DNA of 64,000 bases, from assembly GCA_964649085.1 (NCBI GenBank), contig CAZYPN010000002.1, positions 158,991-222,990 of the forward strand, read 5' to 3'. A model generated the notes under the pieces. It did not search any database. It was not told where the DNA came from and worked only from the letters and a program-made list of their open reading frames with translations. This DNA is from an uncultured Burkholderiales bacterium. GTDB lineage: Bacteria; Vulcanimicrobiota; Xenobia; Xenobiales; JADMJV01. This document shows, in pieces, positions 1 through 42,359 of the stretch (position 1 is the stretch's first letter; every line of letters starts with the position of its first letter). The position numbers were made by a program, and so were the translations under genes.

Positions 1-1593
1 ATGGCCATCGATGCCGATTTGGGAGCCGGACTGATCGATGCCGACACCGCCAAAGCCCGCCGTGCCAAGGTTCAACGGGCAGCCGACTTCTATGGCTCGA
101 TGGATGGAGCCGGCAAATTCATCAAGGGCGATGCCATCGCGGCCATCGTCATCATGGTCGTCAACGTGGTTGGGGGTCTGGTGATGGGCTGCGGCTACTT
201 CGGAATGAGCGCTGGAGAAGCGTTGCAAACCTACGCCGTGCTCTCCATCGGCAATGGCCTCATCACCACGTTGCCCGCCTTTCTGATGTCGACCTCGATG
301 GGCATTATCGTATCCCGGGCCGCTTCCTCGTCCAACCTGGCCCGCGACCTGGTGTTGGAGATCTTGGGCCAGCCCCAGGCCCTGCGCTTTAGCGCCTTCT
401 CCCTGTTGTTGCTCGGCTTCCTGGGGCTCACCGGTCTCTTCGCCTTTCCGGCTCCGCCCTTCTTTGCCCTGGGGGGCGCCATGCTCTACGGTCACCACCT
501 GCTTTCTCAGGAACGCCAGGACGTGCAAGCCAGGCAAGAAAACCAGAAGGCCGAGGTCCAACGCGAAGTGGTCAAGAACCCCGAGCGAGCGGTGATCAAC
601 CTGGGCATCGACCCGCTCAGCCTGGAAGTGGGTCGGGGGCTGCTGGCCCTGGTCGACCCCGGGCAGGGCGCCAAGTTACTCGAGCGCGTGACGGCCATTC
701 GTCGCCACATCTCCCTGGAAATGGGGCTCATCCTCCCCGGCGTGCGCTTTCGCGACAACCTGCAACTCAAGCCCAATGCCTACGTCATCAAGATTCGCGA
801 AATCGAGGTAGCCCAGGGCGAAGTCCAACCGGGTCAATTCCTGGCCATCGGGCCGGCCGACAAGCTCAAAAGCCTGCGGGGCCTCCGAACGGTCGACCCC
901 ACCTACTCGATGCCGGGCATCTGGCTGCCTCCGGAGCAGCGCGGCGATGCCGAGCGACTGGGCTGCATGCTCTTCGACCCGGTCAGCGTCATCGCCACCC
1001 AGCTCACCGAGGTGGTGCGCAACCACGCCGACCAGCTGCTTCACCGCCAGGACGTCCAGGGTTTGCTCGACCACGTCAAGAAAACCCACCCGGCCGTGGT
1101 CAGGGAAGTGGTGGGTGAGGGGCTGGGCCTGGGGGAGGTACAGAAAGTGCTGCAGAATCTGGTGCGAGAGCGCGTGAGCATCCGAGACATGGTGGTCATT
1201 CTCGAGTGCCTGGCCGACCATATGGCCATGACCCGGGATACCGAGATGCTCACCGAGTTTGTGCGTTCCGCCCTGTGTCGCAACATCTGCAAGGATTACG
1301 TCAACGCCGAGGGCGTGCTGCAGGTGTTGACGCTGGACCCCGTGCTGGAAAGCCGGCTACAGACCACCAGCTCGCTCAGCCCGGGCGACGCCCAGGAGGT
1401 GATGCAGGCTCTCGATGAGCCCCTTCGACGCCTGCAAGAAAAAGGGCTACAGCCCATCCTGTTGACCTCGCCCGGAGTGCGGGCCCGGCTGCGAAGGCTC
1501 ACCGAGAGGTCGTGGCCCCAACTGGTGGTGTTGTCGTGGAATGAAATCGCCCCGCGCGTGCAGGTGCATTCGCTCGACATGGTCACATGTTAA
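1..1593 (+). CDS. flhA: FlhA/SctV-family type III export apparatus protein, partial (N-terminal ~130 aa lie upstream of window)
   Basis: Translation contains the conserved FlhA/InvA block 'MAIDADLGAGLIDADTAKARRAKVQRAADFYGSMDGAGKFIKGDAIAAI'. Large cytoplasmic C-terminal domain. ORF runs from window edge. Confidence 0.8.
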   Translation: MAIDADLGAGLIDADTAKARRAKVQRAADFYGSMDGAGKFIKGDAIAAIVIMVVNVVGGLVMGCGYFGMSAGEALQTYAVLSIGNGLITTLPAFLMSTSMGIIVSRAASSSNLARDLVLEILGQPQALRFSAFSLLLLGFLGLTGLFAFPAPPFFALGGAMLYGHHLLSQERQDVQARQENQKAEVQREVVKNPERAVINLGIDPLSLEVGRGLLALVDPGQGAKLLERVTAIRRHISLEMGLILPGVRFRDNLQLKPNAYVIKIREIEVAQGEVQPGQFLAIGPADKLKSLRGLRTVDPTYSMPGIWLPPEQRGDAERLGCMLFDPVSVIATQLTEVVRNHADQLLHRQDVQGLLDHVKKTHPAVVREVVGEGLGLGEVQKVLQNLVRERVSIRDMVVILECLADHMAMTRDTEMLTEFVRSALCRNICKDYVNAEGVLQVLTLDPVLESRLQTTSSLSPGDAQEVMQALDEPLRRLQEKGLQPILLTSPGVRARLRRLTERSWPQLVVLSWNEIAPRVQVHSLDMVTC

Positions 1594-2348
1594 GTCTGGC
1601 CCTGATCGCTGCTGGCCTGCAGCTTCTTACCCTGATGGTCCTGGGTCCTTTGAGCAGGTGGCGGCGTTGGCCCGCCCTCTGGGCTGTTGCCCTGGCCCTG
1701 CTGGCGGGCCTGGGCTGGCTGCAGCGTTCACACCCCCTGCACTGGCTGCTGGCCGGACCTCAGGAATACCTGATGTTCGGACCGCTGAGTCTGCTGGTGC
1801 TGGGACTGCCGGGACGGCACATTCCGCGAAGAGCCACCCGCTGGATCCTGGCGAGCCTTTCGCTGCTGGTGTTCACCCTCTACGGAGTGGGGCCGCTGCT
1901 GGCCCCCGCCCTCTGGCCACCGGCTCCGGCCAGCCGAGGCTCACACGGTGTGTGGCTCCAAGGCGACAGCTACGGCTGTGGTCCGTCGGCCAGCCTGACG
2001 GCCCTGGAACTCCTGGGGGTCCAGGGCGACTTTCCCGCACTCGCCCGCCAGGCTCTGACCAGCCCCCTGATCGGCACGGCTCCCGATCTACTCTGCCGCG
2101 CCCTGGAGAAACTCTATCCGGTGCGGGCCAGGTGGCTGCAACCCCGCAGCCTGGCCGAGGCAGGAACAGGTCCCCTGCTGCTGATTCTTCACCTGGGGCC
2201 CATGGTCGACCATTACGTGGCCCTGCTGGAGCAGGACAGCAAAGGACTGTGGATCGGCGATCCGTTGGACGGCCGGAGGCACATCACGACGGCGGAGTTT
2301 CGTCAGCGCTGGACCGGGGCGGTCATCCGGCTGGAACGCCGACCTTAG
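1587..2348 (+). CDS. Polytopic membrane protein with C-terminal peptidase C39-like (papain-fold, bacteriocin-processing-type) domain
   Basis: N-terminal hydrophobic helices. 'WLQGDSYGCGPSASLTALELLG' resembles the C39 Gln/Cys 'Q..xxCG.A.L' block. 'DHYVALL' is a candidate His block. C-terminal 'IGDPLDG...ITTAEFRQRWTG' matches the C39-like end. Overlaps flhA stop by 7 nt. Confidence 0.5.
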   Translation: MLSLALIAAGLQLLTLMVLGPLSRWRRWPALWAVALALLAGLGWLQRSHPLHWLLAGPQEYLMFGPLSLLVLGLPGRHIPRRATRWILASLSLLVFTLYGVGPLLAPALWPPAPASRGSHGVWLQGDSYGCGPSASLTALELLGVQGDFPALARQALTSPLIGTAPDLLCRALEKLYPVRARWLQPRSLAEAGTGPLLLILHLGPMVDHYVALLEQDSKGLWIGDPLDGRRHITTAEFRQRWTGAVIRLERRP

Positions 2349-2890
2349 CGCAGCGGGGCGCTCTCCAAGACCAAAATCGTGGCGATACTCTCGCGCTGAG
2401 CCGGGGTCAGAGCCCGCATCTCCTCGACGGCCTCGATCAACGGGGCGCCTTCTCGAGCCGAGAGGCTGCCCTTCTTCACGTGCTCCTCGAGCTTGTCGAT
2501 CATCCGAGGAAAGGCGTCCATGCCCATGGCCTTGCCTTTGACGAAGGCCTCGCGGTGCTGCACCACCACCAGTCCGAAGCGGGTCTTACCCTGAATTTCC
2601 TGACCCAGCACGCGGCGCTGGTTGGCGTTCAAGGAGCCAAATCTGGCCACCACATCCTGGGGCAAAGTCTTGAGTTGCTCGACGAGCTCGGGTTTGGAAA
2701 GAATCTGGCGGCTGGTGTTTTCCGACAGCCCATAGGCCCGCAACCGGGCCATATCGGCATCGGGGGCCTGGGCGTAGACCACCGTCGGACCCATCATGCC
2801 CGCCGCCGCGCTGGCCAGGCTGGCCGTGGTCAACAGGGCCCGCGCCAGCTTCTTGCCCAGGTCGGCGGAGTCAAAGCGAGTGGGTCGCAT
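2345..2890 (-). CDS. Hypothetical secreted/periplasmic protein
   Basis: ORF 2345..3019 trimmed to Met44, which precedes a signal-peptide-like segment 'KKLARALLTTASLASAAAGMMGPTVVYAQAP'. No recognisable family. Confidence 0.35.
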   Translation of the reverse strand: MRPTRFDSADLGKKLARALLTTASLASAAAGMMGPTVVYAQAPDADMARLRAYGLSENTSRQILSKPELVEQLKTLPQDVVARFGSLNANQRRVLGQEIQGKTRFGLVVVQHREAFVKGKAMGMDAFPRMIDKLEEHVKKGSLSAREGAPLIEAVEEMRALTPAQRESIATILVLESAPLR

Positions 2891-3260
2891 CAGTTCGGCC
2901 TCGGGTGCAGCCCCCAGTTCCACCCGGTCAGCCGGATCGTCCTGGCCTGAACCCCGAACCGCGGGCGAGGGGGCACCCTGAACCGGACTCAAGGAAGAGA
3001 AACGCTTGAGGGGATCCACAGCTAATTACCGCTGATGGCGTAGGGTGGAGCACCCTTGCGCACTTCGTTCAGAGGAGGCTGAGGCAGCATAAGAAACCGA
3101 TTCGCCCCGGCCAGGTACACCCCTTTACTCGAACAAGGCCGCCAGCCTGAGGGGCAGGGCGTGTGTCACCCTTGCCCCCCTGGGAGCGCGGCCGAAAACC
3201 CGTGGCCCGACCTACAACCCCTCCTCGATTTCGCCAAGGGCGGGGTTCTGGGCCGGGCTC

Positions 3261-5373: not shown

Positions 5374-5667
5374 CTAGCGGTCCAGGTCGCGCAACCCCAC
5401 CATGGCCAGCAAATCGCCCACCGGGCAATGGGCCTCAACAGGGTGACGCAGCGGCAACGTGGGATTCACGCGATAGCGGTTCTTGCGCCCCTCGCGCAAT
5501 TTCTCCAGGTAGCCGGCCTGCACGAGGTCGCCAATAATCTTGTGCACGGCTCGCTCGGTGATGCCAACTCGGTCGGACAGTTCACGCAGGGTGATCTCCG
5601 GATTGGATACGATGCAGATCAGCACATGACTGTGGTTCGACAAGAATGTCCAGCGTTGTTCGCTCAT
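5374..5667 (-). CDS. Winged-helix HTH transcriptional regulator (ArsR/MarR-like), last gene of pilus operon
   Basis: 'ITLRELSDRVGITERAVHKIIGDLVQAGYLEKL' is an HTH plus wing pattern. ATG at 5667-5665 overlaps the pilB TGA (5669-5667) as ATGA. Confidence 0.55.
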   Translation of the reverse strand: MSEQRWTFLSNHSHVLICIVSNPEITLRELSDRVGITERAVHKIIGDLVQAGYLEKLREGRKNRYRVNPTLPLRHPVEAHCPVGDLLAMVGLRDLDR

Positions 5668-7382
5668 CAGTGCGCCAGCAAAGCCAGGGCCTCGTCTACC
5701 GAGGTCAACCCCTGGCGAACCTTGCTGGCCAAACTGGAACGCATGGGAATCAGCGCCCCACACGCCAGAGCGGCTGATGCAATGCGATCGGCATTGGCCG
5801 ATTCGGCCGGTAAAGCCCGCAACTCGGCAGTAAAGTCGAGCAGTTCGTGGACGGCAATGCGACCCTTAAATCCAAAGTGGTTGCACTCCTGACAGCCCAA
5901 CGGACCGAAGAACTGGCCCTCGAGCTGCAACGCTGTCAGACTTTCCTGGGAAGACTCCTCGGACCGCTTACATCGGGGACACAGGCGTCGCACCAAACGT
6001 TGGGCCAGCACGCCGTTGAGTGAAGCCTGAATTTGATACAGGGGAATGCCCATGTCCATCAGCCGCGTAATGGCCTGAGGGGCATCGTTGGTGTGCAGAG
6101 TGGAAAACATTTGATGACCGGTCAGAGCGGCCCGCACGGCGATTTGCGCCGACTCAAGGTCGCGGATCTCACCCACCAGCACCACGTCGGGGTCGTGGCG
6201 CAAAATGGCTCGCAGACCCTGAGCGAAAGTGTAACCGATGTCGGGCTGCACCTGGATCTGAGTGATCCCCGCCATCTGATACTCCACGGGATCTTCCAGC
6301 GTGATGGTTTTGCGGGTGGTATCGCTGATGCGGTGCAGGGTGGCATATAACGTCGTGGATTTGCCCGATCCGGTCGGCCCGGTAACCAGCACAATGCCGT
6401 GGGGTCGCTTGAGAATCTTCTCATAACGATCGAGAATCTCGGACTCAAAGCCCAGACTGGTAAGCTCAAGCTGAACGGCGTGGGGATTGAGAATTCGAAT
6501 CACCACACCCTCGCCGTTCACGTTGGGGATGATGGATACCCGCAGGTCGTACTTCTTGTCGTCGACCACCAGGCTGGAACGACCGTCCTGAGGCAGGCGC
6601 CGTTCGGCGATATCCATTCCTGCGCTGATCTTGATGCGCGAAATGACGGCATTGTAAAGGGCCAGCGGGGGCCCCGGGAACTCGCGCAGCAGGCCATCGA
6701 CACGATAGCGAAGCAGCACCTTGTTGGGGAAGCTCTCCAGATGAAGGTCACTGGCACCCAGGCGAATGGCCTGGGCCAGAATATGGTCGACGAGCTTGAT
6801 GGTGGGAGCGTCGCGATCTTCAAGCGTAGCCGCCTGCTGGACCTGGCCCTGAGCCTCGCCGCCAGCGGCCGCGGTGATGGCTTGCAGCGTGCGGCTCGAC
6901 TCTTCCGAGGTCAGCAAACTGCGATTCAACGCTTCCTCGATATCGCGGCCCAGCGCGAACACCGGCTCGACAACCAATCCGGTAAGTTTCGCCACGAAAT
7001 CTTGCGTTTGCAGATTGTAGGGGTCGCTGACGGCCAGATACAGATGCTGGCCCACTCGGAACAGGGGAATCGCCTTGACCCTGCGAGCCTGGTCTTCGGT
7101 CAGCAAATGAACGCAGGCTGGATCGGGATGATAGCGCCGCAAAGCCAGAGCAGGACAATCGTAATGACGAGAGAGCACGTCGAGCAACTGAGACTCTTCC
7201 ACCCAACGCTGCTGAAGCAAGAAATCGGCCGGGTCGCGCTGACTACTCAGCCGTTGGCGCTGCTCGTCGCTCAGCTCGAGACGCTCGACCCAATCGCTCA
7301 AGGGGTCACCAGGCCCAGGGCTTGTTGGTAGAAGACGATTTCGGCGGGGCCGCTCGACGAACTGGGCTGCAATTGATGCCAC
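5667..7382 (-). CDS. pilB: Type II secretion / type IV pilus assembly ATPase (GspE/PilB family)
   Basis: GspE_N-like N-domain. Walker A 'GPTGSGKSTT', Asp box, His box, and tetracysteine 'CPRCK...C..C' are typical of GspE/PilB. The start may be internal, because the ORF overlaps the pilM 3' end by 85 nt. Confidence 0.85.
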   Translation of the reverse strand: MASIAAQFVERPRRNRLLPTSPGPGDPLSDWVERLELSDEQRQRLSSQRDPADFLLQQRWVEESQLLDVLSRHYDCPALALRRYHPDPACVHLLTEDQARRVKAIPLFRVGQHLYLAVSDPYNLQTQDFVAKLTGLVVEPVFALGRDIEEALNRSLLTSEESSRTLQAITAAAGGEAQGQVQQAATLEDRDAPTIKLVDHILAQAIRLGASDLHLESFPNKVLLRYRVDGLLREFPGPPLALYNAVISRIKISAGMDIAERRLPQDGRSSLVVDDKKYDLRVSIIPNVNGEGVVIRILNPHAVQLELTSLGFESEILDRYEKILKRPHGIVLVTGPTGSGKSTTLYATLHRISDTTRKTITLEDPVEYQMAGITQIQVQPDIGYTFAQGLRAILRHDPDVVLVGEIRDLESAQIAVRAALTGHQMFSTLHTNDAPQAITRLMDMGIPLYQIQASLNGVLAQRLVRRLCPRCKRSEESSQESLTALQLEGQFFGPLGCQECNHFGFKGRIAVHELLDFTAELRALPAESANADRIASAALACGALIPMRSSLASKVRQGLTSVDEALALLAH

Positions 7383-8305
7383 TGCTCAACCCGCACCGGC
7401 AAGCCCAGCGATTCGGTCAGACGCTCATCCAGGCCCTTCCACAGAGCCGTGCCCCCCGTAAGAATGACCTGGCCGGGCTTGAGCATGGGAAACCGTTGCT
7501 GAGCAAACTTCACGGAGCGCTGAATCTCGGTAAGCCATCGCTGAATGAAGGACTCCACTTTGAAGTCTCGCTCCCCCACGTGGTATTCCAGCTTGGACTG
7601 CTCGGCCTGGTCCCAAGCGACCTGATCGCCCATCTGGAAAGCGTAGGTGAAGTCAGCCCCGGCCATGCCAAAATCGCGGCTGAAATAGGGCTTGCCGCCT
7701 GAGAGCAGCAGAACGTGAGTGGTGCGAAATCCACACACCACCACCAGCGAACATTCCTCGCTCGGAACCTTGCGGTTCAGGGCCAGGCCGCGCACCAGGG
7801 CCAGCACCGCGGGTTCACACGAAGCCACTTCGAGACCGCCCTGCACAAACAAAGCCTTGCGCGCGCCCAGGGTTGCCTTGGGAATGGCCAGAAAAAAATA
7901 GCCCAGATGGTCGGGTTTGTGTAGCGCGGGCACCTCAAACGGATACAGGTCCACCTCGGCCAGGGTGTGGGGAATATCTCGGGCGGCTGCCGTAGGCAAC
8001 GCCAGCTTCAGTTGCTCTCGGGTCAGCCGCGGCACTTCCACATAGCCCGTGGCGGCCGTGGCGTCTTCTAGCGACAGATGAATCTTCGGGGTGGAGCGGC
8101 CGGCCTCGCGGGCCACCCGCTCAATATGCTGGCAGGCCAGAGCCCCCAGTTCGGCAGGGCCGAGATCGTCCTCTTTGCCATGGCGCTGCGAAACAAGCGG
8201 AACATGAGACACGGTGCAGGTAGTTCCCGAGCGATCGAGGCAACACACCTTGAGGGCATAGCTACCAAGATCTACACCGAGCTGGACCTTTTTCTTCCAG
8301 AACAC
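7298..8305 (-). CDS. pilM: Type IV pilus assembly protein PilM (actin-like ATPase fold)
   Basis: N-terminal 'LGVDLGSYALKV' and overall length/pattern fit PilM. Position is immediately upstream of pilB. Confidence 0.65.
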   Translation of the reverse strand: MFWKKKVQLGVDLGSYALKVCCLDRSGTTCTVSHVPLVSQRHGKEDDLGPAELGALACQHIERVAREAGRSTPKIHLSLEDATAATGYVEVPRLTREQLKLALPTAAARDIPHTLAEVDLYPFEVPALHKPDHLGYFFLAIPKATLGARKALFVQGGLEVASCEPAVLALVRGLALNRKVPSEECSLVVVCGFRTTHVLLLSGGKPYFSRDFGMAGADFTYAFQMGDQVAWDQAEQSKLEYHVGERDFKVESFIQRWLTEIQRSVKFAQQRFPMLKPGQVILTGGTALWKGLDERLTESLGLPVRVEQWHQLQPSSSSGPAEIVFYQQALGLVTP

Positions 8306-8338
8306 CTCAGAAGATTCGGATGCAACCGAGGCCTTCCT

Positions 8339-9586
8339 TCACAGTCGCTGGCGGAAAAGCACGGTAAGCCCGGACGAACTGCCGCCACCGGAGTTGGATC
8401 CCGTTGGCGAAAACTCGGCCAGCGCCACGTCATAGTGAATGCTGGCCGCCCCCGACAGCTTCACCCGATCGCCGACCAGAGCACCGAAAATCGTGGCAGA
8501 GTTGCTCAACTCCATATCGGCTCCCGGCCCGTAGACAACCCCCACAAGATCGGTTCCGCCCGATTGATCGTACTTGGCTCCGTCGCCCAAATAAATCTGC
8601 AGCAACTCGGGTCGGGTGCCATTCTCGGAAAGCCGGGCTCCGTTGCTGAGCTGCATCTCCTTCGACACGAAAATCTGCACCGGCCCGTCTCCGGCCAGCT
8701 CGATTCGGGTGCCGCCCGAGATGTCGAGTTTCTCGAAAATGTAGGTTCCGGCTTCAAGAGTAAGACGGGCGCCGTTGCTGATGGTCACCGTGCGATAGTT
8801 GCCGGGTTCGAGCGACTTGGATTTCGAATTCAAGCTCAGATCCTTATCTCCAGGCTTACCGGGTGCCTCAACCGTAGGAAGGTCAAGCGGTGTGGTTTGA
8901 ACCTCGGCCTTTTCGTAGCTGGTGCCCCAGTCTTTCCAAATGGTGCTGTCTTTGCCCATGGTGCTCCCATTGGGAACTGTGGCATCGACCTTGCCGCCAA
9001 CGCCCACCAGGATCGTGCCGTCGATACTGGCCCCTCCGGTGATCTGGACCGAACCGGCTTTACTCGAATTGGTCACCACCCTCGCCTGGGATCCACCTTT
9101 CTTGTAGGGCCCCAATCGACTGTCATACGAGTCGATCGAGGCCCCGTTGGAAAGCGCGATAGAACTGCCAAAAGCTCCCGGCACACCCTTGCCTACCGAG
9201 GTTCCGGGCCGAACCAGCGCACAGGCTCGGCGTCGGGTGGTGGGGGCGAAAAAGCCCGTGCTGATCACATAGATACAGTCGGAGGGAATGGCCTGTCCAT
9301 CCAGGGTACGGTTGGGGCTGCGAAGAATTTGAATGTGATAGGTTTCGGGACCATCCCCCAACTGCACCGGCTGAGCCAATCCGGCATATCCCGAATTCTC
9401 AGCCAGCAGCTTGAGAGCCACCACCAATCCTGAGTCGGCGGCCGCCTGGGCTCGCTCGCTGCCCAGTCGATGAACAGCCATTTGCAGCTGCTGTCGTGAG
9501 CCCCAAGAGAGCGCGAAGGCGATGGCCATCAAGATCGCTCCCAGAGCCACTGCCAGCGCCAGCACAAAGCCCGCCCGGCGCCTCAA
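8339..9586 (-). CDS. Membrane-anchored pilus-associated protein (PilX/TadG-like minor-pilin-associated; candidate tip/adhesin)
   Basis: Single N-terminal TM 'FVLALAVALGAILMAIAFAL'. Gly/Ser/Thr-rich C-terminal region with repeated 'SNGARL', 'GGASIDG', 'GGT(R/D)' motifs. Start ATGA-overlaps the upstream pseudopilin stop. Confidence 0.4.
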   Translation of the reverse strand: MRRRAGFVLALAVALGAILMAIAFALSWGSRQQLQMAVHRLGSERAQAAADSGLVVALKLLAENSGYAGLAQPVQLGDGPETYHIQILRSPNRTLDGQAIPSDCIYVISTGFFAPTTRRRACALVRPGTSVGKGVPGAFGSSIALSNGASIDSYDSRLGPYKKGGSQARVVTNSSKAGSVQITGGASIDGTILVGVGGKVDATVPNGSTMGKDSTIWKDWGTSYEKAEVQTTPLDLPTVEAPGKPGDKDLSLNSKSKSLEPGNYRTVTISNGARLTLEAGTYIFEKLDISGGTRIELAGDGPVQIFVSKEMQLSNGARLSENGTRPELLQIYLGDGAKYDQSGGTDLVGVVYGPGADMELSNSATIFGALVGDRVKLSGAASIHYDVALAEFSPTGSNSGGGSSSGLTVLFRQRL

Positions 9587-10167
9587 TTCTGGGGTACCAC
9601 GCTGGCCACGAATTCTACCTGGTAACCGTTCGGTGTGGTCGTGAACAGGCGAACGCGATAGGCCCGATTGGAGGGCCCGGAAACCTCAAAAGCCCGCACG
9701 TTTCGCAGCAATATCCTTTGCCGCCAGGACGACGGTGCCAGCGGTGGCCCCGTCGTCAACTCGCCTCCGCTGGTCACGGGCGTGACAAAAGCCTGTTCGG
9801 CGCTCCAAAGCGTACCATTGTTGAGGCCGAAGGCCCTCCAGCTCGACCAGATCGGCACTCCCGAGCGGTCGAATTGCAGCGCGCTGCTCCCAACACTGGC
9901 GGCTCGAGGGATGACAATACCCGCAATGTTGGCATCTCGACGGATCGACTCGGACCGGCTCCAGGAAAGCTCGGACATCACGGTGTTCAAGGCCTTTTCC
10001 GAGAGGCTCAGCGTCTCCTGGACAGCCTGATAGCGCAAGTTCAGACGGGCGAAGAAGATCAGGTAGCCCATCATCAAGGTTCCCGCCAGGCCCATCAACC
10101 CCATCGAGACCACGGCCTCGGTCAGGGTGAAGGCGTGGCAGCGTCGACTAACCGGGACTGTCGACAA
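9583..10167 (-). CDS. Prepilin-type N-terminal cleavage/methylation domain protein (pseudopilin)
   Basis: 'RCHAFTLTEAVVSMGLMGLAGTLMMGYLIFF' is a class III signal-like motif (A/G-FTL.E plus hydrophobic helix). Confidence 0.55.
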   Translation of the reverse strand: MSTVPVSRRCHAFTLTEAVVSMGLMGLAGTLMMGYLIFFARLNLRYQAVQETLSLSEKALNTVMSELSWSRSESIRRDANIAGIVIPRAASVGSSALQFDRSGVPIWSSWRAFGLNNGTLWSAEQAFVTPVTSGGELTTGPPLAPSSWRQRILLRNVRAFEVSGPSNRAYRVRLFTTTPNGYQVEFVASVVPQN

Positions 10168-10534
10168 AGCACTTCACCTCCACTCGATGATTACGGCCGC
10201 CTTCCTGCCAAAGAACTCGCGAGCGAACGAACAACAGGCCCTGTTGTGACGAGGTTTCCAATTGGGGCTGGAACTGCATCACCGAGCGGCCAATGCGACA
10301 GGAAATCGTTGCCAACGGTTGCACGCCCAGGGTGGGCTTCAGATTACCGGCTCGCACCGACTCCAACCCTTCGCGGGCGATTTGAACGGCCACCCGAACC
10401 TGGGCGGCCTGAATGTAGCTGCGCTCTGCCGAAGAAACCACGCCCAGAGTGGCAACCCCTACCACGAACATGACGAAAAAGGCCACCACCACTTGAGTCA
10501 GCAAAAAACCTCTGAAGCGGTGAATGCCCATCAC
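10148..10534 (-). CDS. Pseudopilin-like protein (prepilin-type N-terminus, E5->Q)
   Basis: 'FRGFLLTQVVVAFFVMFVVGVATLG' is a G-F-L-L-T-Q prepilin-like motif followed by a hydrophobic helix. Confidence 0.5.
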   Translation of the reverse strand: MMGIHRFRGFLLTQVVVAFFVMFVVGVATLGVVSSAERSYIQAAQVRVAVQIAREGLESVRAGNLKPTLGVQPLATISCRIGRSVMQFQPQLETSSQQGLLFVRSRVLWQEGGRNHRVEVKCFVDSPG

Positions 10535-11745
10535 ATCATCAGCGCCGGCAAATTGAGGAAGGGAAGTGCCAGCCCCAGGATCACTCCCCCAAGAATGAGC
10601 CCGACCAGCACCGTAAGTGCCGGTTCAAGCAGGCTGGTAAGGCCCCGCAGGGCGTGCTCGCAGCGACGGGTGTAGAAGCGATCAATTTCGGTCAGCATAC
10701 GCTCCAGAGCCCCGGAACTCTCTCCCGTCGCCACCATTTCACAGGCCATCGAGGGGAAGAATTCGGTGCCACGCATGGCCGAGGACAACATCTCGCCCAG
10801 CGTCACCCGCTCCCTCAATGTCTGCACCAGAGCGGCCACATGCACGCTGGGAGTGGCTTCGGCCACCACCGTCAGGGCCTGAGCCAGGGGCACCCCACTG
10901 CGATACAGCAGACCCAACGTGCGCGCGAAGAGAGCCACCTGGAGGCCCTTGAAAATCTGATTGAAGGGATACAGTCGCAGCAGGAAGGCCTCGAAGCCAG
11001 CCCGGGTTGGCCCGTGCTTCAGGCCACGTCGAAGGCTCACAACTGCCAGCACGATGCCGAGAAGCCAGGCCCACCAGTAGCTCGAGAGACTCATGCCCAC
11101 ATTGACCAGGATCTGCGTTGGCAGCGGCAAGGCCGCACCCATGGCGTCGAAAATCGACTTGATCTGGGGCACACCCCAGGCCAGCATCAGACCGGCCAGA
11201 ATACTGGCCACACTCAGAACGAACAAAGGATAGGCGAGTGCCGAACGAACCTGACCCATCAGAGCATCCCGGCTCTCCATGTCCTCGGCCAGTTGACCCA
11301 ATACCTCCGGCAGCCGTCCCGAAGCCTCGCCAGCCCGCACCAGTTTGGATTGATAGATCGGAAAAACGGCCGGATGCTGGGCCATGGCGTCGGACATATT
11401 GGACCCCTCGGCCAGGCCGCTGGCGACCTGCCTCAACACCCGCTGCAGCCGGCTGTTCTCGCAGTCATCGGCCAGAGTCTCAAGACATGGCTTCAGTGCC
11501 ACTCCGGCCGAAGTGGCCACGGCCAACTGCTGAAAAGTGGCCAACAACTGCTCGGTGGAGGGGCCTCTTTCAAACAGGGGCTGATGCTCGCGAATGGCCC
11601 GCAACTCGGTGACCAACTGATAGTGTTCCGCCAGACTTTGCAGGGCAGCCGAACGAGAACTGGCCTGGATGTTGCCACTGACCAGTTGCCCCTCGTGATT
11701 CTGAGCTTGATACTGATAACGGGGCACGAAAGACTCCTTTCCCAC
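10531..11745 (-). CDS. Type II secretion system / type IV pilus inner-membrane platform protein (GspF/PilC family)
   Basis: 404 aa with two GspF repeats, three TM segments, and a typical 'GLILGGVILGLALP' C-terminal TM. Confidence 0.85.
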   Translation of the reverse strand: MGKESFVPRYQYQAQNHEGQLVSGNIQASSRSAALQSLAEHYQLVTELRAIREHQPLFERGPSTEQLLATFQQLAVATSAGVALKPCLETLADDCENSRLQRVLRQVASGLAEGSNMSDAMAQHPAVFPIYQSKLVRAGEASGRLPEVLGQLAEDMESRDALMGQVRSALAYPLFVLSVASILAGLMLAWGVPQIKSIFDAMGAALPLPTQILVNVGMSLSSYWWAWLLGIVLAVVSLRRGLKHGPTRAGFEAFLLRLYPFNQIFKGLQVALFARTLGLLYRSGVPLAQALTVVAEATPSVHVAALVQTLRERVTLGEMLSSAMRGTEFFPSMACEMVATGESSGALERMLTEIDRFYTRRCEHALRGLTSLLEPALTVLVGLILGGVILGLALPFLNLPALMM

Positions 11746-11843
11746 GGGTTCGCCCCCCTGCCTCGTTCGCCTTCAGCCTTAAGGCTGAAGCCAGCCAGGC
11801 TTAAGTCTGAAGGCATCGATGGGTTCAAGGCGAAGCCGCCGCT

Positions 11844-12245
11844 GTGGAGCGACCGCTGCTGATCTACGTTGTGGAAGACAGTCCTACTCAGGCTCTGGGG
11901 GTCAAGCGCACCTTGAAGAGCCTTCAACCCGTGGAGGTCAAGCTCTTCAGCGATGGTCTGGAGGCACACCGAGCGGTACAGTCCTGCCCTCCCGATCTCC
12001 TATTGATGGACCTGTTGGTGCCTTCGTTGCACGGCCTGGCCCTGTGCCGTTTACTGAAGTTCCACGCTGACTTTCAGCATATTCCCGTGCTGATTTTCAG
12101 CTCGATCACCGAAGTCGACATTCTCGAGCAAACCCAGGCGGCCGGTGCCGACGCCTTTTTGCCCAAGCCTTTCGATCCCGAACAACTGGTCAGCCGGGTG
12201 CGCAAACTGCGTCCCGAACTGCGACCGGTAGAGGCGTCGGCGTGA
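11844..12245 (+). CDS. Response regulator receiver (CheY-like, stand-alone REC)
   Basis: 'LLIYVVEDSP', 'DLLLMDLLVPSLHGLAL', 'IPVLIFSSI', 'LPKPF' are REC signature positions. Starts at GTG. Confidence 0.8.
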   Translation: MERPLLIYVVEDSPTQALGVKRTLKSLQPVEVKLFSDGLEAHRAVQSCPPDLLLMDLLVPSLHGLALCRLLKFHADFQHIPVLIFSSITEVDILEQTQAAGADAFLPKPFDPEQLVSRVRKLRPELRPVEASA

Positions 12246-13012
12246 AAGCCGAAGTCTTCTGGGACGACTTTCTCGACGCTTTGGAGTCGGCCCTCGAGCC
12301 CGATCCCGAGGCCCTGAGCCTGCGCGAACTGTATGTCCAGGGTCGCCTGTGGCAATCCTGGTGCAAGCGGCCCCATCGAGCCCCCGAGCGTTTCCAGCCC
12401 AACGATTGGGCCAGCAACTTTATGCGCTCAGGGCTGGGTAAACTGGAACTCAACCCGGACCTCTCCCAGCCTCGTCAAGGCGATCCCTGGCTCCTGGAGT
12501 TGCTGTGCCGCTCGTTGCTGGCCCTCAGCCCGGCCGGGACGCTGCACATCTCTGGCGATCCTCTGGCCCTCTGGCTCCGCCCTCCTCCGGGCCTGCCGAT
12601 TCCGGCGATGAAGGGCCCCCTACTTCAACGTCTCGGCTGGTCGCTTTCACTGGAGTGGACCTCCGACGGCATCCGTGTGCCGTGCCCCCTTGCGGTCGAG
12701 ACAACTGCCAGCCCGGTGGACTTTGACTCGCTGAGGCGCACCACGATGGACGATCCAGAGTTCGAACGCGAACTGATCGAAACGTTCCTTTCCGAGGGTC
12801 AACACCAACTCGAGAGCCTGCAGTTGCGCTATGCCAGCAACATTCTCCATTCGTTTCGCGGCAGTGCCTCGATGGTCGGAGCACGCACATTGACCGAACT
12901 GTTGGCAGCTCAGGAGAAACAGCCGGATCCGGCCCAACTTGTCCATTTGCAAAAGGAATTCGAGGCCGTCAGCGACTGTCTCCGTCAGCGACTACAGCAA
13001 CTCCACGCGTGA
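12242..13012 (+). CDS. Hpt (histidine phosphotransfer) domain protein
   Basis: C-terminal 'ILHSFRGSASMVGARTLTELL' fits the Hpt 'HxLKGSxxxxGA' motif. GTGA overlap with the upstream REC gene. Confidence 0.55.
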   Translation: MKAEVFWDDFLDALESALEPDPEALSLRELYVQGRLWQSWCKRPHRAPERFQPNDWASNFMRSGLGKLELNPDLSQPRQGDPWLLELLCRSLLALSPAGTLHISGDPLALWLRPPPGLPIPAMKGPLLQRLGWSLSLEWTSDGIRVPCPLAVETTASPVDFDSLRRTTMDDPEFERELIETFLSEGQHQLESLQLRYASNILHSFRGSASMVGARTLTELLAAQEKQPDPAQLVHLQKEFEAVSDCLRQRLQQLHA

Positions 13013-14816: not shown

Positions 14817-17800
14817 ATGAAGCACGCCGCACTCAAACAGTTGCTCCGCGTGATGGCTCGATTCAGCGCCATCACGCTGGGCCTGTCGATGGTTCTCCTG
14901 CTGGGGGCCTTCTTTCTGGCGTACTTTTTCAAAGACCAAATTTTACAGCACTACCGCCGGCAACTGGAAAAAAGTCTCAACGTCAACATCGCCATCCAAA
15001 GCTCCCAGCTGCGGGGCCTTCAGCTTCAACTTCGCGGAGTTCAGGCACAAACGCGAGGCGGGGCCCCGCTGGCCCGCATCGAGCGCCTGAAGGTCAACTT
15101 CCGCCCCTGGGCCGGCCTCACCCACGGAGCCGCTCGCTGGATCGACGCCTGTCAGTTGGAGCAACCTCAAATCGACCTGATTCTCGATGAGCAGGGTCGG
15201 CTGAACTGGGATTCCGTCACCCTGCCGACTCTCCCAGCACCCACCAGTCCCGAGCAAACGTTTCGGGGTGAGGTGCGTTTCGAGGGTGCCTCTCTCAGCC
15301 TGCGCGACCAACGCCAGGGCGGATTTCTGGCCCAACTCCCCCCGCTTCAGGGCCAGGTGGTGGTCAGGCCCGACCGACGCTGGACGGCCAGCGCCCAGGG
15401 GGCCCACCTGAAACTTCACGGCCAGGGCAGCCCGGGAGACCAGCAAATCCGACTTCAAATTGACGATCTGCCGCTGGAGGACTACCTGCAGCACCCTGAA
15501 CTGCGCGGCCTGATCCGGGCGGAGCAGGCTCTCGCCAGGGGCTCCCTGGAGGCCCGCTGGGGACCCGCAAAACCACCCCTGCTAAGTGGCAAAATCGGCC
15601 TGTCGGCCAGTTCTCTGGCCCTGCCCTCTTCCGGCCAAAGTCTGCAACAGGCCAGCGCCCAGCTTGCCTGGCTGGGCGGGAGCCTGTCGATCGAAAAGGC
15701 CCGGGCACTGTGGCAGGGCATGCCGATCCATATCGAGGGTGAAGTCAAAAGTGGCCAGCACGGTTGGGAGGACCCCTGGCTTGATCTGCGCCTGCGGGCA
15801 CCCCAAATTGCGCTGAAAAAGCTACAGCCCTGGCTCAAGGGAGTTCCGGTTGAACCCAGCGGAACGCTGGCCCTTGACATTCTGGCCGAGGGCCCCCTCT
15901 CTGAGCCCCAGGTCAGGGGGAGGCTGAAAGGTTGGAAACTGCTGCTCGGCGGCCAGCACCTGGCTGATGTTCTCAGCGACTTCGAGCTCGATGCCACCAG
16001 CCTGCACATTGAAAAACTGCTGGCCCATACCGGGCAGGGTGAGGAGTTCTCGGCCTCGGGCTGGATCTTTCGCGGTGGCGACCAGCGCATTTTCTTACGC
16101 CTTCAGGGCGGCCAAGCCGATTTGCGGGCCTTGCACCCCTGGCTGGGCCAGGGGCAGGATCTCGAGGTTACCGCGCTGGGATCGCTGCTCGATCCCATTT
16201 TAACAGGACACGGTCAACTGGCCGCTCTACCCCATAATCCCCTGGGCCTGACCGGGGCCGACGGAAACTTCTGGATCGACTCCGGCTCGGCCCTGGTCTG
16301 GAACTCGGCTCTGCAGGGCTCCGGAGGAGAAATTCAGGTACCCTGGGCGGTGCTCGATCTGACTCGAGGTCAACTGGCTGGGGCGGTCACCACCGAGCGG
16401 TTCAACCTGGCCACTCCGCAGGCCCTTCTGGAACTGCGAGGCGGAGGCCAGGGCGTGATCGACCTGAAAAACCAAAACTATAGCGGAACCGCCTGGCTGG
16501 AAGACAGCCGCATTCAGGCTGGCGGACTACCCTCCCTGAATGGCGTTCGCGGGTATCTGGCCTTTGAGCCCGGCGCGATGCTCGTGCCGCAACTCGAATT
16601 CCAGGCAGCGGGTGACCCGGTGGAGGTCACGGGCAGTTGGAACTCGGGGCAGGGCAATCTGTGGCTCCGTTCTCCCGGCATCAACCTCGCCCATTGGCTG
16701 AACCTCCCCGGAGCACAGGGGACCCAGCAACTCATGGCCTCGGCCCGAGTGCAGGCCGGGCAGATTGACGCCTTCCGCCTGTCCACTCGAGGCACGTTGG
16801 GGGATGCCTGGGCGGTGGGTCGCTGGCTTCCCGGGCAGGGTCCCGAACTCTACACCCAGTTCGCCAACCTGAGCCCGGGCAACGCCCCGCCGCTGGTGGG
16901 CGAGCTGGCCACCCGTTGGAATCAGGGACGGATGCAATACCTCTATCGGCTGGCGCCCGAACAGGGTGCCGACCAGACCTGGGCCTTCGGCCAGGGATGG
17001 TTGCAGGGAAATCAGCTGCACCTGGCCGAGAATTTCCTGCACCAGCCGTCGCTTGAACCCGTTGTTCAAGAGCATAAAGAGGGACGAGCCTATTCCTACT
17101 TTGGTCCGCTCGAGGGACCGCCCCTCATCACCGTCCACGATGGGGCCGTGCCGCGCAGCCAGGGAACGCTGAGCTGGAAGGGTCGCCTGGACCTGCGGCG
17201 CAAGCGCCTTCAGGTCGATGTTCAGGGACGACAACTGCGGGCCCATCAGTTAGCCGCCTGGTTCGGCCCCCTGGCCCAGCCGGCACCCGAGTGGTGGGTG
17301 GAACAGGGCGTACGACTCGAGGAAGCCGTCGTCGACGTGGATGCTCGGGGCGACGGTCCCCTGAACGGGCTGCAATGGTCGGCCTCGCTGCGCTCTCCCT
17401 GGACCCGCCTTTCGCGCAACCTGGGCGATGAACTGCGCTCCACCGCCTTCTCCTGGCGCACCGAGGCCGAGCTCCGAAGTGGCAGGCTGCGCCTGACCAA
17501 CCTGCTTTCACCCCGGCCTCAGGACTGGTCTCTGATGAGCTGGCGAGGTCCGCGTCGAGGCGGAACCCCCGAGGCCGATTGGCTGCGCTCGCGATTGGAA
17601 CTGGATTCCAAGTTGCAGCTCGCCGGCTGGGTGCGTGCCGAAGCCTTCCCCATGAGCACTGCCGGCTGGTTCACCCCCGGATGGGTCTCGGGCCAGTTGC
17701 CTTCGGGCAAGTTGAGCACCGGAACGGGGCAGGGGCTGCGGATCAGCGGTAGCCTTTCTCGTCCACTGCTCGACGGTCGCGTCGACCTGGTGGATGGCCG

Positions 17801-20567
17801 ATTTTGGACCGGCTTCCGCTACCTGCCCATCGACCAGGCCTATGCCGACCTCAAAGGCCACCAGGGACGCATTTCCCTCTCTCGCTTCCTGATGAGCTCC
17901 AACGGTCTCACCGTCCAGGGACGAGGCCACCGCAGCGCCGATGGCAGCCTGGTAGGCCAGCTCTGGGCCGATGACCTCAGTCTGGAAACCTTGAGAGACT
18001 TTGGTTGGAACACCCAGGGATGGCAGGGTAAGCTGGACCTGGCCCTGCGCTTCCGCGATGCCCAGGGGGTCTCGCCCGAGGCCTGGCTGGCCCTGGAGTC
18101 GGGCGGGCTGGCGCCGCCCGACTCCAGTCAGGCCGCCATTCGCCACCTGGTTCTGGGAGAAATCGAGCAGGACAGTGAAGGGTTGCCCACCACCGGACCG
18201 GGTCGGGGAGTTCATCTCTCGCTACAGGCGGGTCAGGTGGTCGTGCAACTGCCGCCCAGCGGCATCGCCCTCGAGTGGGACAATGCCGAAGCGAGCGAAC
18301 TGAAGGCCCAGGGTCAGATCAGCTGGCGAAGTGCTCCCAGGTCGGGGCAGAGCCTGCTGACCTGGATGCTGTCTAAAGACGGTCCCCGCTTCGGCAATGG
18401 CAAGCAACCCGCCGAGTTCAGCCTGACCCGGCTGAGCTGGACGCTGCTGCGGCAACTGGCCGGATTGCCCGACGACCCGCGTCAAGGGCTACTCTCGGGG
18501 CAGCTCTGGCTCTTGGGGCAGTATTTCGAGCAACACCGCACCCGCAACCCGGTGCTGAGCGGTCAACCTCTGGTCGAGGCCCAGATCAGCCAGTTGCAGC
18601 TCGAAGGGAGCGACGCCCAGCAACGCTGGTCTGGCATGCAGCTGGCCCAGCCTATCCAGCTGGCCTATCAGGTGTTCCCGGGCAAGGCCGGGATGCCGGC
18701 CAATGGCCGACTGAGCCTGTCACCCACCTGGATCGAATTCTTCCACCGGGCAGCCGCCGAATCCCAAAAGATCTTGGGGGGCAAACTGGCCATGGAAGGC
18801 GAGGTGCTGCTGACCGAAGGTCCAGGGGCCAAGAAGCTCGCCCCCAGCTGGAAGCAGTACCTGCGAGTTGGGCTGGAGAAGTTGCCGCTGCAGAACCTGG
18901 GATTCCTGACCTCCCGCAAGCTGGATGGTATGCTGGAGAAGCTGGAGCTGAGCCTGGAGGGCAGCCTGAATCAATCGCAGGGCTGGCTAACCCTGCTGGG
19001 ACGAGACCTGCAGTTCGAATCCTTGCGCGTTTCCTCGGCTCAGGGCCGGGTAGAGCTGCGCGGAGATGAGCCCGGCAAGCTCAAGCTGACGATGGGCCAG
19101 GGCGACGAAGAGTTCCGCTGGCTGTTGGGAGCCCCCAACGATCTCACCCAGTCGCTGCGCATTCAGGGCCAGGCCGAGCTCGACTTCGATCGGCTGCTGG
19201 TGGTCAACAGTCCCACTCTGGTTCCGAGCTGGAAGGGTTGGTCGTTATCGGGGCGCAGCCAGTTCGATCTTTCGGCCCAACTGCAAGACCCCCAGATGCG
19301 CCTGCTCTCGGCCCTGGCTCCAGAAGGCAGCCTGCTCACCGGCAATCTCAAAGCCGGCTTGCAGCTTCGAGGCACGGCCGAGCAGCCCGAACTCAGCGGC
19401 AACCTGGACCTCGAGCGAGGGGGCCTGGCCCACCCTCAGCTGCGCTCTCCCCTGACAGACTTCAACCTGCAAGCCCGCTTTGAACGTCTGGAAGGGGCCC
19501 TGGGCCGATACACGCTGCAGCGCCTCGACGGCTTGCTCGGTGGCCAGCCTTTCCGGGGAAGCGGCCAGGCCGAACTGCTGGGGCTCGACCCCCAGAGTCT
19601 CGAAATCCGTTTCGACGGAGACGAACTGCCCATTCAGTGGGACGGCCTGATGGATGGGCGGGCCAATGTACACCTGCTGCTCAGCGGGGCCCAACCAGCC
19701 CTGACGGGCACCATCGAGGTGCCCGAAGCCGACTTCTGGCTTCCCAGCAAAGATACCCTGGCTCGCCTGGGCTCGTTGAGCCAGGGCAGCGGTCGAACCC
19801 CGCTCGGTTACAACATCGCTGTTCAACTCGGGGAAGACTGCTGGGGGCACTATCTGAATTCGGCGGTGCGTGGCTCGGGAGAACTGCAGCTGGTGCCCAG
19901 TTCCAGCTCGGGAAAGCCCGTGCCCAACGGCCGGCTGTTCCTCTCGCGCGGCGTGATTCGAATTCCGCTTTATGAAGTCAACTTCCGGGTGCGCCAGGGC
20001 TATGCCTATTTTGAAGACAACTGGCTGCCCCGGTTGGACAATCTCGAGGCCGACAGCACCCTGGGAGAATACCAGATCACGGCCCGCATCGACGGCCAGT
20101 ATCCCAAGGTCAGCCTGGAGCTATTTTCCAACCCGCCTCTGGCCGAATCGGAACTGCGCCGGGTGGTGGCCGGTGGCCTACCCAGTATCAACGCCCCCAG
20201 CAATCCCTCACTGCTGGGGAATGCCCTGGGCAATTCCAACAACTTCCTGGTGAACCAGGGAATGACGTTCCTCTCCAACCTGGTCACGGGACAAATCACC
20301 CAGGGACTGGGTCGACTGCTCTCGTTTTCAGAACTCTCCTTCGATGTTCTGCCCACCTCGGAGTACGCTCTGCGTCTGGCCAAAGCACTGGATGACAAAG
20401 AGAAATTCCTGATCACCTTCGCCCAGGTCATCGGCACCACCCGATTCAACCAGAGCCTCAACCAGTACGGCATCGAGTATCGCTTCCAGCCCAATCTGAT
20501 GACCCGATTCACGATGGACAACTACGGTCAGGCCCGGCTCTGGTTTCAAGGGGTGCTGCGCTTCTAA
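14817..20567 (+). CDS. Giant (1916 aa) inner-membrane-anchored envelope protein, TamB/AsmA-like (DUF490-type C-terminus)
   Basis: N-terminal signal-anchor 'FSAITLGLSMVLLLGAFFLAYFF'. Very long beta-rich body. C-terminus ends '...NYGQARLWFQGVLRF' with a terminal aromatic, as in TamB/AsmA family. Confidence 0.45.
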   Translation: MKHAALKQLLRVMARFSAITLGLSMVLLLGAFFLAYFFKDQILQHYRRQLEKSLNVNIAIQSSQLRGLQLQLRGVQAQTRGGAPLARIERLKVNFRPWAGLTHGAARWIDACQLEQPQIDLILDEQGRLNWDSVTLPTLPAPTSPEQTFRGEVRFEGASLSLRDQRQGGFLAQLPPLQGQVVVRPDRRWTASAQGAHLKLHGQGSPGDQQIRLQIDDLPLEDYLQHPELRGLIRAEQALARGSLEARWGPAKPPLLSGKIGLSASSLALPSSGQSLQQASAQLAWLGGSLSIEKARALWQGMPIHIEGEVKSGQHGWEDPWLDLRLRAPQIALKKLQPWLKGVPVEPSGTLALDILAEGPLSEPQVRGRLKGWKLLLGGQHLADVLSDFELDATSLHIEKLLAHTGQGEEFSASGWIFRGGDQRIFLRLQGGQADLRALHPWLGQGQDLEVTALGSLLDPILTGHGQLAALPHNPLGLTGADGNFWIDSGSALVWNSALQGSGGEIQVPWAVLDLTRGQLAGAVTTERFNLATPQALLELRGGGQGVIDLKNQNYSGTAWLEDSRIQAGGLPSLNGVRGYLAFEPGAMLVPQLEFQAAGDPVEVTGSWNSGQGNLWLRSPGINLAHWLNLPGAQGTQQLMASARVQAGQIDAFRLSTRGTLGDAWAVGRWLPGQGPELYTQFANLSPGNAPPLVGELATRWNQGRMQYLYRLAPEQGADQTWAFGQGWLQGNQLHLAENFLHQPSLEPVVQEHKEGRAYSYFGPLEGPPLITVHDGAVPRSQGTLSWKGRLDLRRKRLQVDVQGRQLRAHQLAAWFGPLAQPAPEWWVEQGVRLEEAVVDVDARGDGPLNGLQWSASLRSPWTRLSRNLGDELRSTAFSWRTEAELRSGRLRLTNLLSPRPQDWSLMSWRGPRRGGTPEADWLRSRLELDSKLQLAGWVRAEAFPMSTAGWFTPGWVSGQLPSGKLSTGTGQGLRISGSLSRPLLDGRVDLVDGRFWTGFRYLPIDQAYADLKGHQGRISLSRFLMSSNGLTVQGRGHRSADGSLVGQLWADDLSLETLRDFGWNTQGWQGKLDLALRFRDAQGVSPEAWLALESGGLAPPDSSQAAIRHLVLGEIEQDSEGLPTTGPGRGVHLSLQAGQVVVQLPPSGIALEWDNAEASELKAQGQISWRSAPRSGQSLLTWMLSKDGPRFGNGKQPAEFSLTRLSWTLLRQLAGLPDDPRQGLLSGQLWLLGQYFEQHRTRNPVLSGQPLVEAQISQLQLEGSDAQQRWSGMQLAQPIQLAYQVFPGKAGMPANGRLSLSPTWIEFFHRAAAESQKILGGKLAMEGEVLLTEGPGAKKLAPSWKQYLRVGLEKLPLQNLGFLTSRKLDGMLEKLELSLEGSLNQSQGWLTLLGRDLQFESLRVSSAQGRVELRGDEPGKLKLTMGQGDEEFRWLLGAPNDLTQSLRIQGQAELDFDRLLVVNSPTLVPSWKGWSLSGRSQFDLSAQLQDPQMRLLSALAPEGSLLTGNLKAGLQLRGTAEQPELSGNLDLERGGLAHPQLRSPLTDFNLQARFERLEGALGRYTLQRLDGLLGGQPFRGSGQAELLGLDPQSLEIRFDGDELPIQWDGLMDGRANVHLLLSGAQPALTGTIEVPEADFWLPSKDTLARLGSLSQGSGRTPLGYNIAVQLGEDCWGHYLNSAVRGSGELQLVPSSSSGKPVPNGRLFLSRGVIRIPLYEVNFRVRQGYAYFEDNWLPRLDNLEADSTLGEYQITARIDGQYPKVSLELFSNPPLAESELRRVVAGGLPSINAPSNPSLLGNALGNSNNFLVNQGMTFLSNLVTGQITQGLGRLLSFSELSFDVLPTSEYALRLAKALDDKEKFLITFAQVIGTTRFNQSLNQYGIEYRFQPNLMTRFTMDNYGQARLWFQGVLRF

Positions 20568-25066: not shown

Positions 25067-25083
25067 CCCCAGATTATAACACG

Positions 25084-25308
25084 TTAATTCATCGAGCAGA
25101 ATCCCTGGTCGACACAGCTGCCACAGCCCCCCGGGGGACAGCTCATGGGCATCTCCTCGCCCCCCGACTGGGGAGAACTGAAGGCAGAGAACAGCTTGCG
25201 CAGGTCGCTTTGCTGGCAATGAGGACACTCTACGGCGTCCTCAGAACGGCGAAGCAGTTTCTCGAAACGGTGATGACATTGGTTGCAGGCGTATTCGTAA
25301 ATCGGCAT
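25084..25308 (-). CDS. FmdB-family zinc-ribbon protein (putative regulatory protein)
   Basis: 'MPIYEYACNQCHHRFEKLLRRSEDAVECPHCQ' is the canonical FmdB CxxC...CxxC ribbon. Transcribed divergently from the giant coiled-coil gene. Confidence 0.7.
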   Translation of the reverse strand: MPIYEYACNQCHHRFEKLLRRSEDAVECPHCQQSDLRKLFSAFSSPQSGGEEMPMSCPPGGCGSCVDQGFCSMN

Positions 25309-42311: not shown

Positions 42312-42359
42312 CGGAAAGGTTTCCAAATCCAGGGTTCCCAGGCCTTCTGGAGAAGCTGG

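Follow-up and report, generated by a model that had tools for sequence, protein, structure and literature searches.

Overlap of flhA with the gene for a membrane-anchored C39 peptidase in the Eremiobacterota: probably neighbours in one narrow lineage rather than partners

Does a peptidase gene that begins inside the last codons of flhA serve the flagellar export gate, or do the two genes merely lie side by side? The question is raised by the beginning of a 64,000-nucleotide stretch of DNA from an uncultured bacterium of the Vulcanimicrobiota (assembly GCA_964649085.1, contig CAZYPN010000002.1, positions 158,991 to 222,990 of the forward strand), the whole of which is called the window here. 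On the plus strand, the 3' part of flhA (1..1593), truncated by the window start and coding for the C-terminal 530 of 698 amino acids, shares the seven nucleotides ATGTTAA (1587..1593, +) with the gene for a membrane-anchored C39 peptidase of 253 amino acids (1587-2348, +). A first-pass annotation had described an FlhA gene overlapping the gene of a polytopic membrane protein with a C39-like domain, and had suggested either an inactive scaffold or a protease that processes an exported substrate. The reading preferred here, with considerable confidence, is that these are two intact, functionally independent genes made neighbours in one narrow lineage of the Eremiobacterota (Vulcanimicrobiota). 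On this reading flhA would have moved from a fliK-flgE-fliM-fliN-fliO-fliP-fliQ-fliR-flhB-flhA operon into an atpD-atpC-murA-flhA-peptidase string, where the peptidase would be co-transcribed with flhA and translated by termination-reinitiation. The peptidase would be an inner-membrane-anchored endopeptidase that cleaves exported or envelope peptides through a Cys131/His209 dyad, independently of FlhA, and the common operon would be an accident of genome rearrangement with no functional partnership behind it.

The upstream gene was correctly named in the first-pass annotation. Its part in the window matches Pfam FHIPEP (PF00771) with E=2.7e-162 over profile positions 132-656 of 657, and scores 521.7 bits with the NCBIfam FlhA model TIGR01398 against at most 345 bits with the hrcV/SctV injectisome models. 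The complete gene of 698 amino acids lies on a contig that carries an identical downstream protein (L001, 1926-4022), with a GGAGG Shine-Dalgarno motif 7 nucleotides 5' of its ATG. The full-length protein scores 730.6 bits with TIGR01398, covering model positions 3-678 of 678, against 547 bits for hrcV/SctV, and has the full FHIPEP architecture of an N-terminal membrane and a C-terminal cytoplasmic domain. Comparison of L001 with its orthologue in L013 (94% protein identity) gave a ratio of nonsynonymous to synonymous substitution rates (dN/dS) of 0.064. The gene is alive, being intact and under strong purifying selection, and because of its length of 698 amino acids and its dN/dS it is not a pseudogene. 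Of the two findings that would have told against the first-pass reading, an orphan flhA or a pseudogene, the second is thus absent and the first holds with respect to flagellar genes: atpD-atpC-murA lie upstream, and the genes downstream are non-flagellar as well. A Pfam scan of the larger open reading frames (ORFs) of the window yielded no second flagellar gene. A FliT match on the ORF at 52569-54572 (20.3 bits, cutoff 29.5) was dismissed as weak and probably spurious.

The nearest named relatives of this FlhA come from Eremiobacterota/Vulcanimicrobiota/Xenobia and are 65-68% identical. FlhA of flagellated Eremiobacterota (e.g., GCA_046327835.1 and GCA_050250895.1) shares this identity over the full length and the same FHIPEP architecture. 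In genomes of that type flhA is the final cistron of a fliK…fliPQR-flhB-flhA operon and scores 795-802 bits, whereas flhA of the window lineage follows murA and scores 730.6 bits. Operon-embedded FlhA proteins in L015 and L016 (both 8001-10100) thus lie above the TIGR01398 equivalog cutoff of 772.1 bits; the detached ones (L001, 1926-4022, and L014, 8001-10088, the latter with 727.8 bits) reach 728-731 bits, slightly under it. At the 302 positions that are at least 95% conserved among 117 other FlhA proteins, the detached clade keeps 269 and differs at 33, mostly by conservative changes. Judged by these scores and positions, the detached-flhA clade is a distinctly diverged branch. A search of the literature on Eremiobacterota flagella found nothing specific.

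The downstream gene codes for a real C39 peptidase. Pfam Peptidase_C39 (PF03412) matches amino acids 123-252 with 37.1 bits against a gathering score of 22, covering profile positions 5-131 of 133, and so the profile search bears out the Q...CG...H signature that had been noticed by eye. The signature reads Q125-x5-C131-G132, H209 (in VDHYV) and D225-P226, and aligns with the catalytic residues of the ComA peptidase domain; Q125, C131, H209 and D225 are invariant in six close homologues of 52-100% identity. An AlphaFold2 model built with 130 family sequences has a mean predicted local distance difference test (pLDDT) of 95.3 and a predicted template modelling (pTM) score of 0.91. Four long helices are followed by an alpha/beta domain, and the window peptidase has the papain-like C39 fold. 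The model helices span residues 2-23, 28-47, 49-55, 57-77 and 82-109, the four long ones by DSSP being 2-23, 28-47, 57-77 and 82-109, in agreement with the polytopic protein first described. Together with the family hydrophobicity and Lys/Arg profile they delimit a four-helix transmembrane (TM) domain at amino acids 1-113 (1587..1925, +), which includes a conserved loop between TM2 and TM3. The C39 (double-glycine-type) cysteine peptidase domain with Q125/C131/H209/D225 occupies amino acids 123-253 (1953..2345, +). The peptidase gene is under purifying selection as well, with a dN/dS of 0.168 between L001 and its 87%-identical orthologue in L013. Residue W123 (codon 1953-1955) stands at a site eight residues before the catalytic cysteine where the family has a cysteine, in the consensus DGVCxQxTxYTCGP. 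Cysteine is conserved there in at least 90% of 130 aligned members, including the 52%-identical relatives; the window peptidase and its three closest relatives have tryptophan. By its residues and fold the C39 domain is judged genuine and catalytically equipped.

The peptidase belongs to a large family of similar proteins. A word-based homologue search returned six relatives only, and their profile was then searched against 1.84 billion cluster representatives. This gave 1172 representatives of 50%-identity clusters at E<=1e-3, 430 of them at E<=1e-10. Among the 150 matches listed, most are about 270 amino acids long and match over nearly their full length, which means that the C39 domain and the N-terminal helices stay joined; the family is referred to here as four-transmembrane (4TM)-C39. 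Across 155 members the active site is kept almost without exception (Gln in 155, Cys in 154, His in 154, Asp in 153). Conservation of the cysteine and histidine, on which the first-pass annotation had made its C39 assignment depend, is thereby confirmed, and its option of an inactive C39-like scaffold is abandoned. Members are named in their sources as 'hypothetical protein', 'cysteine peptidase family C39 domain-containing protein' or 'predicted double-glycine peptidase', and the hosts given by name belong to Planctomycetota, Kiritimatiellia and Candidatus Xenobia. We found no experimental study of the family, and the literature on COG3271 and on membrane or stand-alone C39 peptidases gave nothing relevant. 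In eight longer members Pfam showed no fused domain that would be informative. One of the family, P0009 from Kiritimatiellia (604 amino acids), has the whole module duplicated in tandem, with four TM helices and C39 twice, the first copy being far more divergent.

The distribution of the linkage argues for neighbours without a shared task. The flhA-peptidase adjacency occurs in L001-L006, which are the window's own population, and in L013 and L097, with a peptidase at least 87% identical throughout. L013 and L097, in which the peptidase is 87% and FlhA 94% identical, keep the order atpD-atpC-murA-flhA-peptidase. In L007, where the peptidase is 68% identical, flhA is not adjacent and a divergently transcribed gene precedes the peptidase. 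The same absence was found in L009 and L010 (52% identity), in which a toxin-antitoxin-like pair comes first, and in L011, a Xenobia genome, in which a DEAD-box helicase gene does. A tblastn search with FlhA over 85 family loci, about 570 kb in total, gave zero matches. Seen from the side of flhA, L015 and L016 have the operon SLT-fliK-flgE-fliM-fliN-fliO-fliP-fliQ-fliR-flhB-flhA, with no C39 gene in it. There flhA is the final gene and unrelated genes follow, so that the earlier expectation of flhF or flhG behind flhA does not fit this phylum. In L014, whose FlhA is 75% identical, flhA is already detached and a DUF7689 gene is next. The detached flhA of L014, together with the restricted linkage, indicates that the junction arose by recent rearrangement, in a clade whose flhA had already left its operon. 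The pairing is young, of genus level and confined to one narrow lineage, and it has no support as a functional unit.

The peptidase ATG at 1587 is the earliest start codon in its frame and the flhA stop codon TAA lies at 1591-1593, which upholds the 7-nucleotide overlap reported at first sight. L013 and L097 keep the overlapping register with a GTG start codon (GTGCTGA). No Shine-Dalgarno motif was found upstream of the peptidase start, and because of this and the 7-nucleotide overlap we infer termination-reinitiation and co-transcription with flhA; the simplest reading would be that the peptidase is translated by ribosomes ending on flhA. The genes form the same-strand string atpD-atpC-murA-flhA-peptidase, with spacers of 8 and 86 nucleotides across atpC, murA and flhA. 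A scan of the atpC-murA-flhA-peptidase string for sigma70-type promoters and terminators gave nothing above shuffled expectation, and murA has a dN/dS of 0.009 between L001 and L013. Since atpC, murA and flhA are functionally unrelated, tight packing on the same strand is no sign of a shared function.

The side of the membrane on which the C39 domain lies can be predicted from the sequences of the family. Mean Lys/Arg counts, taken over 131 canonical-length family members, are 2.4 in the TM1-TM2 loop and 3.9 in the TM3-TM4 loop, compared with 1.7 in the TM2-TM3 loop and 1.4 in the ten residues that follow TM4. Under the positive-inside rule such a distribution places the N-terminus outside, and with it the C39 domain. 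Three family members have a soluble domain ahead of the four helices. The N-terminal extension of P0131 opens with a textbook signal peptide (MRTILTCLLLVLPLAAVA/EV), and P0091 and P0152 open with a signal or anchor sequence, all three read by eye. Independently of the charge counts, a soluble domain behind a signal or anchor sequence would put the beginning of TM1 in the periplasm, and therefore also the C39 domain.

Among the alternatives, a divided form of the peptidase-containing ATP-binding cassette (ABC) transporters (PCATs) survives best, and is nevertheless thought unlikely. On this proposal a cytoplasmic C39 domain would remove leaders of the double-glycine type from bacteriocin-like peptides or other ribosomally synthesized and post-translationally modified peptides, a separate transporter would export the products, and the four helices would serve as an anchor only. 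The closest sequence and structure matches of the C39 domain, which are the peptidase domains of ComA, PCAT1 and LahT150, speak in its favour, as does the annotation of one family member as 'predicted double-glycine peptidase'. The resemblance is distant, however: sequence identity to PCAT1, ComA and LahT (MEROPS C39, PF03412) is 18-23%, the PDB sequence search returned ComA alone, marginally, at E about 0.9, and the NCBIfam PCAT models match only 44 residues of the peptidase with 16-18 bits. PCATs have their C39 domain fused N-terminally to the membrane and nucleotide-binding domains of an ABC transporter, whereas the window peptidase is unfused: neither Pfam nor NCBIfam found an ABC_membrane or ABC_tran match in its 253 amino acids, the protein ends with the C39 domain, and in place of a transporter it has a four-helix membrane domain with no PDB match in the fold search. 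PCAT peptidase domains are cytoplasmic; the positive-inside count and the three signal-peptide-bearing fusions argue that the present one lies outside.

Gene neighbourhoods bear on the same proposal. Of the 66 family loci with 400 nucleotides or more of sequence downstream, within L017-L096, 22 have a gene for an M3-family oligoendopeptidase as the next gene on the same strand. This gene matches TIGR02289 'M3_not_pepF' with 528 bits as well as Pfam Peptidase_M3 (e.g., L049, 5070-6797) and is the sole neighbour that recurs in the family; an M3 gene is absent from the window. The M3 neighbour hints at a peptide-processing role for the family, and, having no visible signal peptide, it could degrade released leaders in the cytoplasm as the divided-PCAT proposal would have it. 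Against that proposal, no ABC transporter, HlyD-like or precursor-peptide gene, and so no transporter or double-glycine-leader substrate, recurs at the 85 family loci or lies next to the window peptidase.

Two other kinds of C39 protein offer further points of comparison. The C39-like domain (CLD) of HlyB lacks the catalytic cysteine and serves as a substrate-binding scaffold. Inactive C39-like domains of this kind, from exporters of RTX toxins (HlyB CLD, PDB 3zua; a Vibrio domain, 3b79), differ from the window peptidase, which has the cysteine, conserved family-wide. In Pseudomonas, the functional-amyloid operon codes for FapD, a C39 peptidase that probably acts outside the cytoplasm. The window peptidase resembles FapD in being a stand-alone C39 peptidase with no transporter fusion, and differs from it by four TM helices and by having no fap operon. 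Membership in that family was rejected, the NCBIfam model C39_FapD giving 16.3 bits against a cutoff of 330.

A partnership with the export gate, the option closest to the protease of the first-pass annotation, is distinctly improbable. The peptidase would be made in a fixed ratio with FlhA and would process a substrate or component of the flagellar or type III secretion system (T3SS). In one variant it would cut the propeptide off an exported protein; in another it would cleave peptidoglycan peptides locally and so let the rod pass. Several observations speak against this: flhA is not adjacent where the peptidase is 68% or 52% identical, nor in the 85 other family loci; the flagellar operons of the phylum are without a C39 gene; and the string that joins the two genes also holds atpC and murA, two genes with plainly no relation to one another. 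Substrates of the flagellar T3SS go straight through the export channel and bypass the periplasm. With the catalytic domain predicted to be periplasmic and the substrates using the channel, action on cytoplasmic FlhA or on flagellar substrates is unlikely, and a protease in the service of type III export is not upheld.

A related proposal accepts the periplasmic domain and is a long shot. In this lineage a membrane-embedded C39 peptidase that faces the periplasm would have been recruited to the flagellar export gate, and termination-reinitiation would keep it in a fixed ratio with FlhA. Its place of action would be beside the basal body, where it might, for instance, cut peptidoglycan peptide cross-links or mature an envelope component in rod assembly. 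Least credible of all, and for the peptidase already very nearly dismissed, is a degenerate remnant, with flhA the relic of a lost flagellum, the C39 domain an inactive HlyB-like scaffold, or both: flhA does lie apart from all other flagellar genes, none being found by Pfam among the larger ORFs of the window, and FlhA does fall slightly short of its equivalog cutoff (730.6 against 772.1 bits), but flhA is full length (TIGR01398 3-678 of 678) with a dN/dS of 0.064 and 269 of 302 highly conserved positions kept, most changes being conservative, and the C39 domain has Gln, Cys, His and Asp, unlike the C39-like domains without cysteine, with a dN/dS of 0.168.

Two independent genes remain the preferred reading, and several points weigh against it. 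The preserved overlapping start register, ATG in the window and GTG in L013 and L097, could reflect selection for coupled expression. Divergence of FlhA in the detached clade may mean that its context or function has changed there. The periplasmic face is the most likely location of the C39 domain, as predicted from the positive-inside rule and three fusion proteins, while an M3 oligoendopeptidase with no obvious signal peptide would be a better fit to a cytoplasmic partner. No substrate of the peptidase was found.

Behind the peptidase gene, the ORF list has a convergent ORF (2345..3019, minus strand) of 181-224 amino acids, to which no function was assigned and which is given as context only, outside any system described here. 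It shares 4 nucleotides with the 3' end of the peptidase gene, so that a terminator has no room. The product has a probable signal peptide (…GPTVVYA/QAPD) and no significant Pfam or NCBIfam match. Gene calls include it in L001, L013 and L097; it is conserved in the closest relatives only (L013 and L097), and does not adjoin the 68%-identical peptidase homologue in L007.

Other genes of the window were also noted. A type IV pilus/type II secretion-like cluster on the minus strand (5667-13012) has genes for an MshE/PilB-type ATPase, PilM and a DUF7305 protein, then two small ORFs and the gene for a T2SSF platform protein; behind it, on the plus strand, come genes for a response regulator and an Hpt-domain protein. 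The 1916-amino-acid AsmA/TamB/DUF748-type protein at 14817-20567 (+) suggests that the organism has an outer membrane. A giant ORF of 4242 amino acids (25381-38109, +) has no Pfam match, and 20% of its residues are Gln, 17% Leu, 16% Glu and 11% Arg. The whole of it has the look of a coiled coil, and exact internal repeats are nearly absent (8 repeated 8-mers). Upstream of the peptidase homologue in L010 there are shorter coiled-coil ORFs rich in Gln and Glu (6471-8389). Near the window end, the ORF at 62393-63937 (-) joins a polyketide-synthase dehydratase N-terminal domain with a class I/II aminotransferase domain and probably represents the tail of a polyketide synthase gene. Long ORFs with no Pfam match are found at 23618-25228 (-), 40437-43556 (-) and 61101-62657 (-), of 536, 1039 and 518 amino acids; the first two have a coding-like bias in GC content at third codon positions (GC3), and the last failed the GC3 filter. 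Rfam and tRNA scans of the window were empty.

If the two genes are independent, as is preferred here, their pairing says little about type III secretion, and overlaps of this kind need a check of conservation before they are read functionally. Recruitment to the export gate, were it true, would make the peptidase a new accessory enzyme of flagellar assembly and would give more than 1000 clusters of 4TM-C39 proteins their first assigned function. Two by-products are of modest value. One is a family, large and widely distributed, whose members join four membrane helices to an intact C39 domain, an unusual architecture in that the domain is anchored in the membrane and probably faces the periplasm. 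The other is the diverged flhA that has split from its operon in one clade of the Eremiobacterota, which raises the question of whether this clade still builds flagella.

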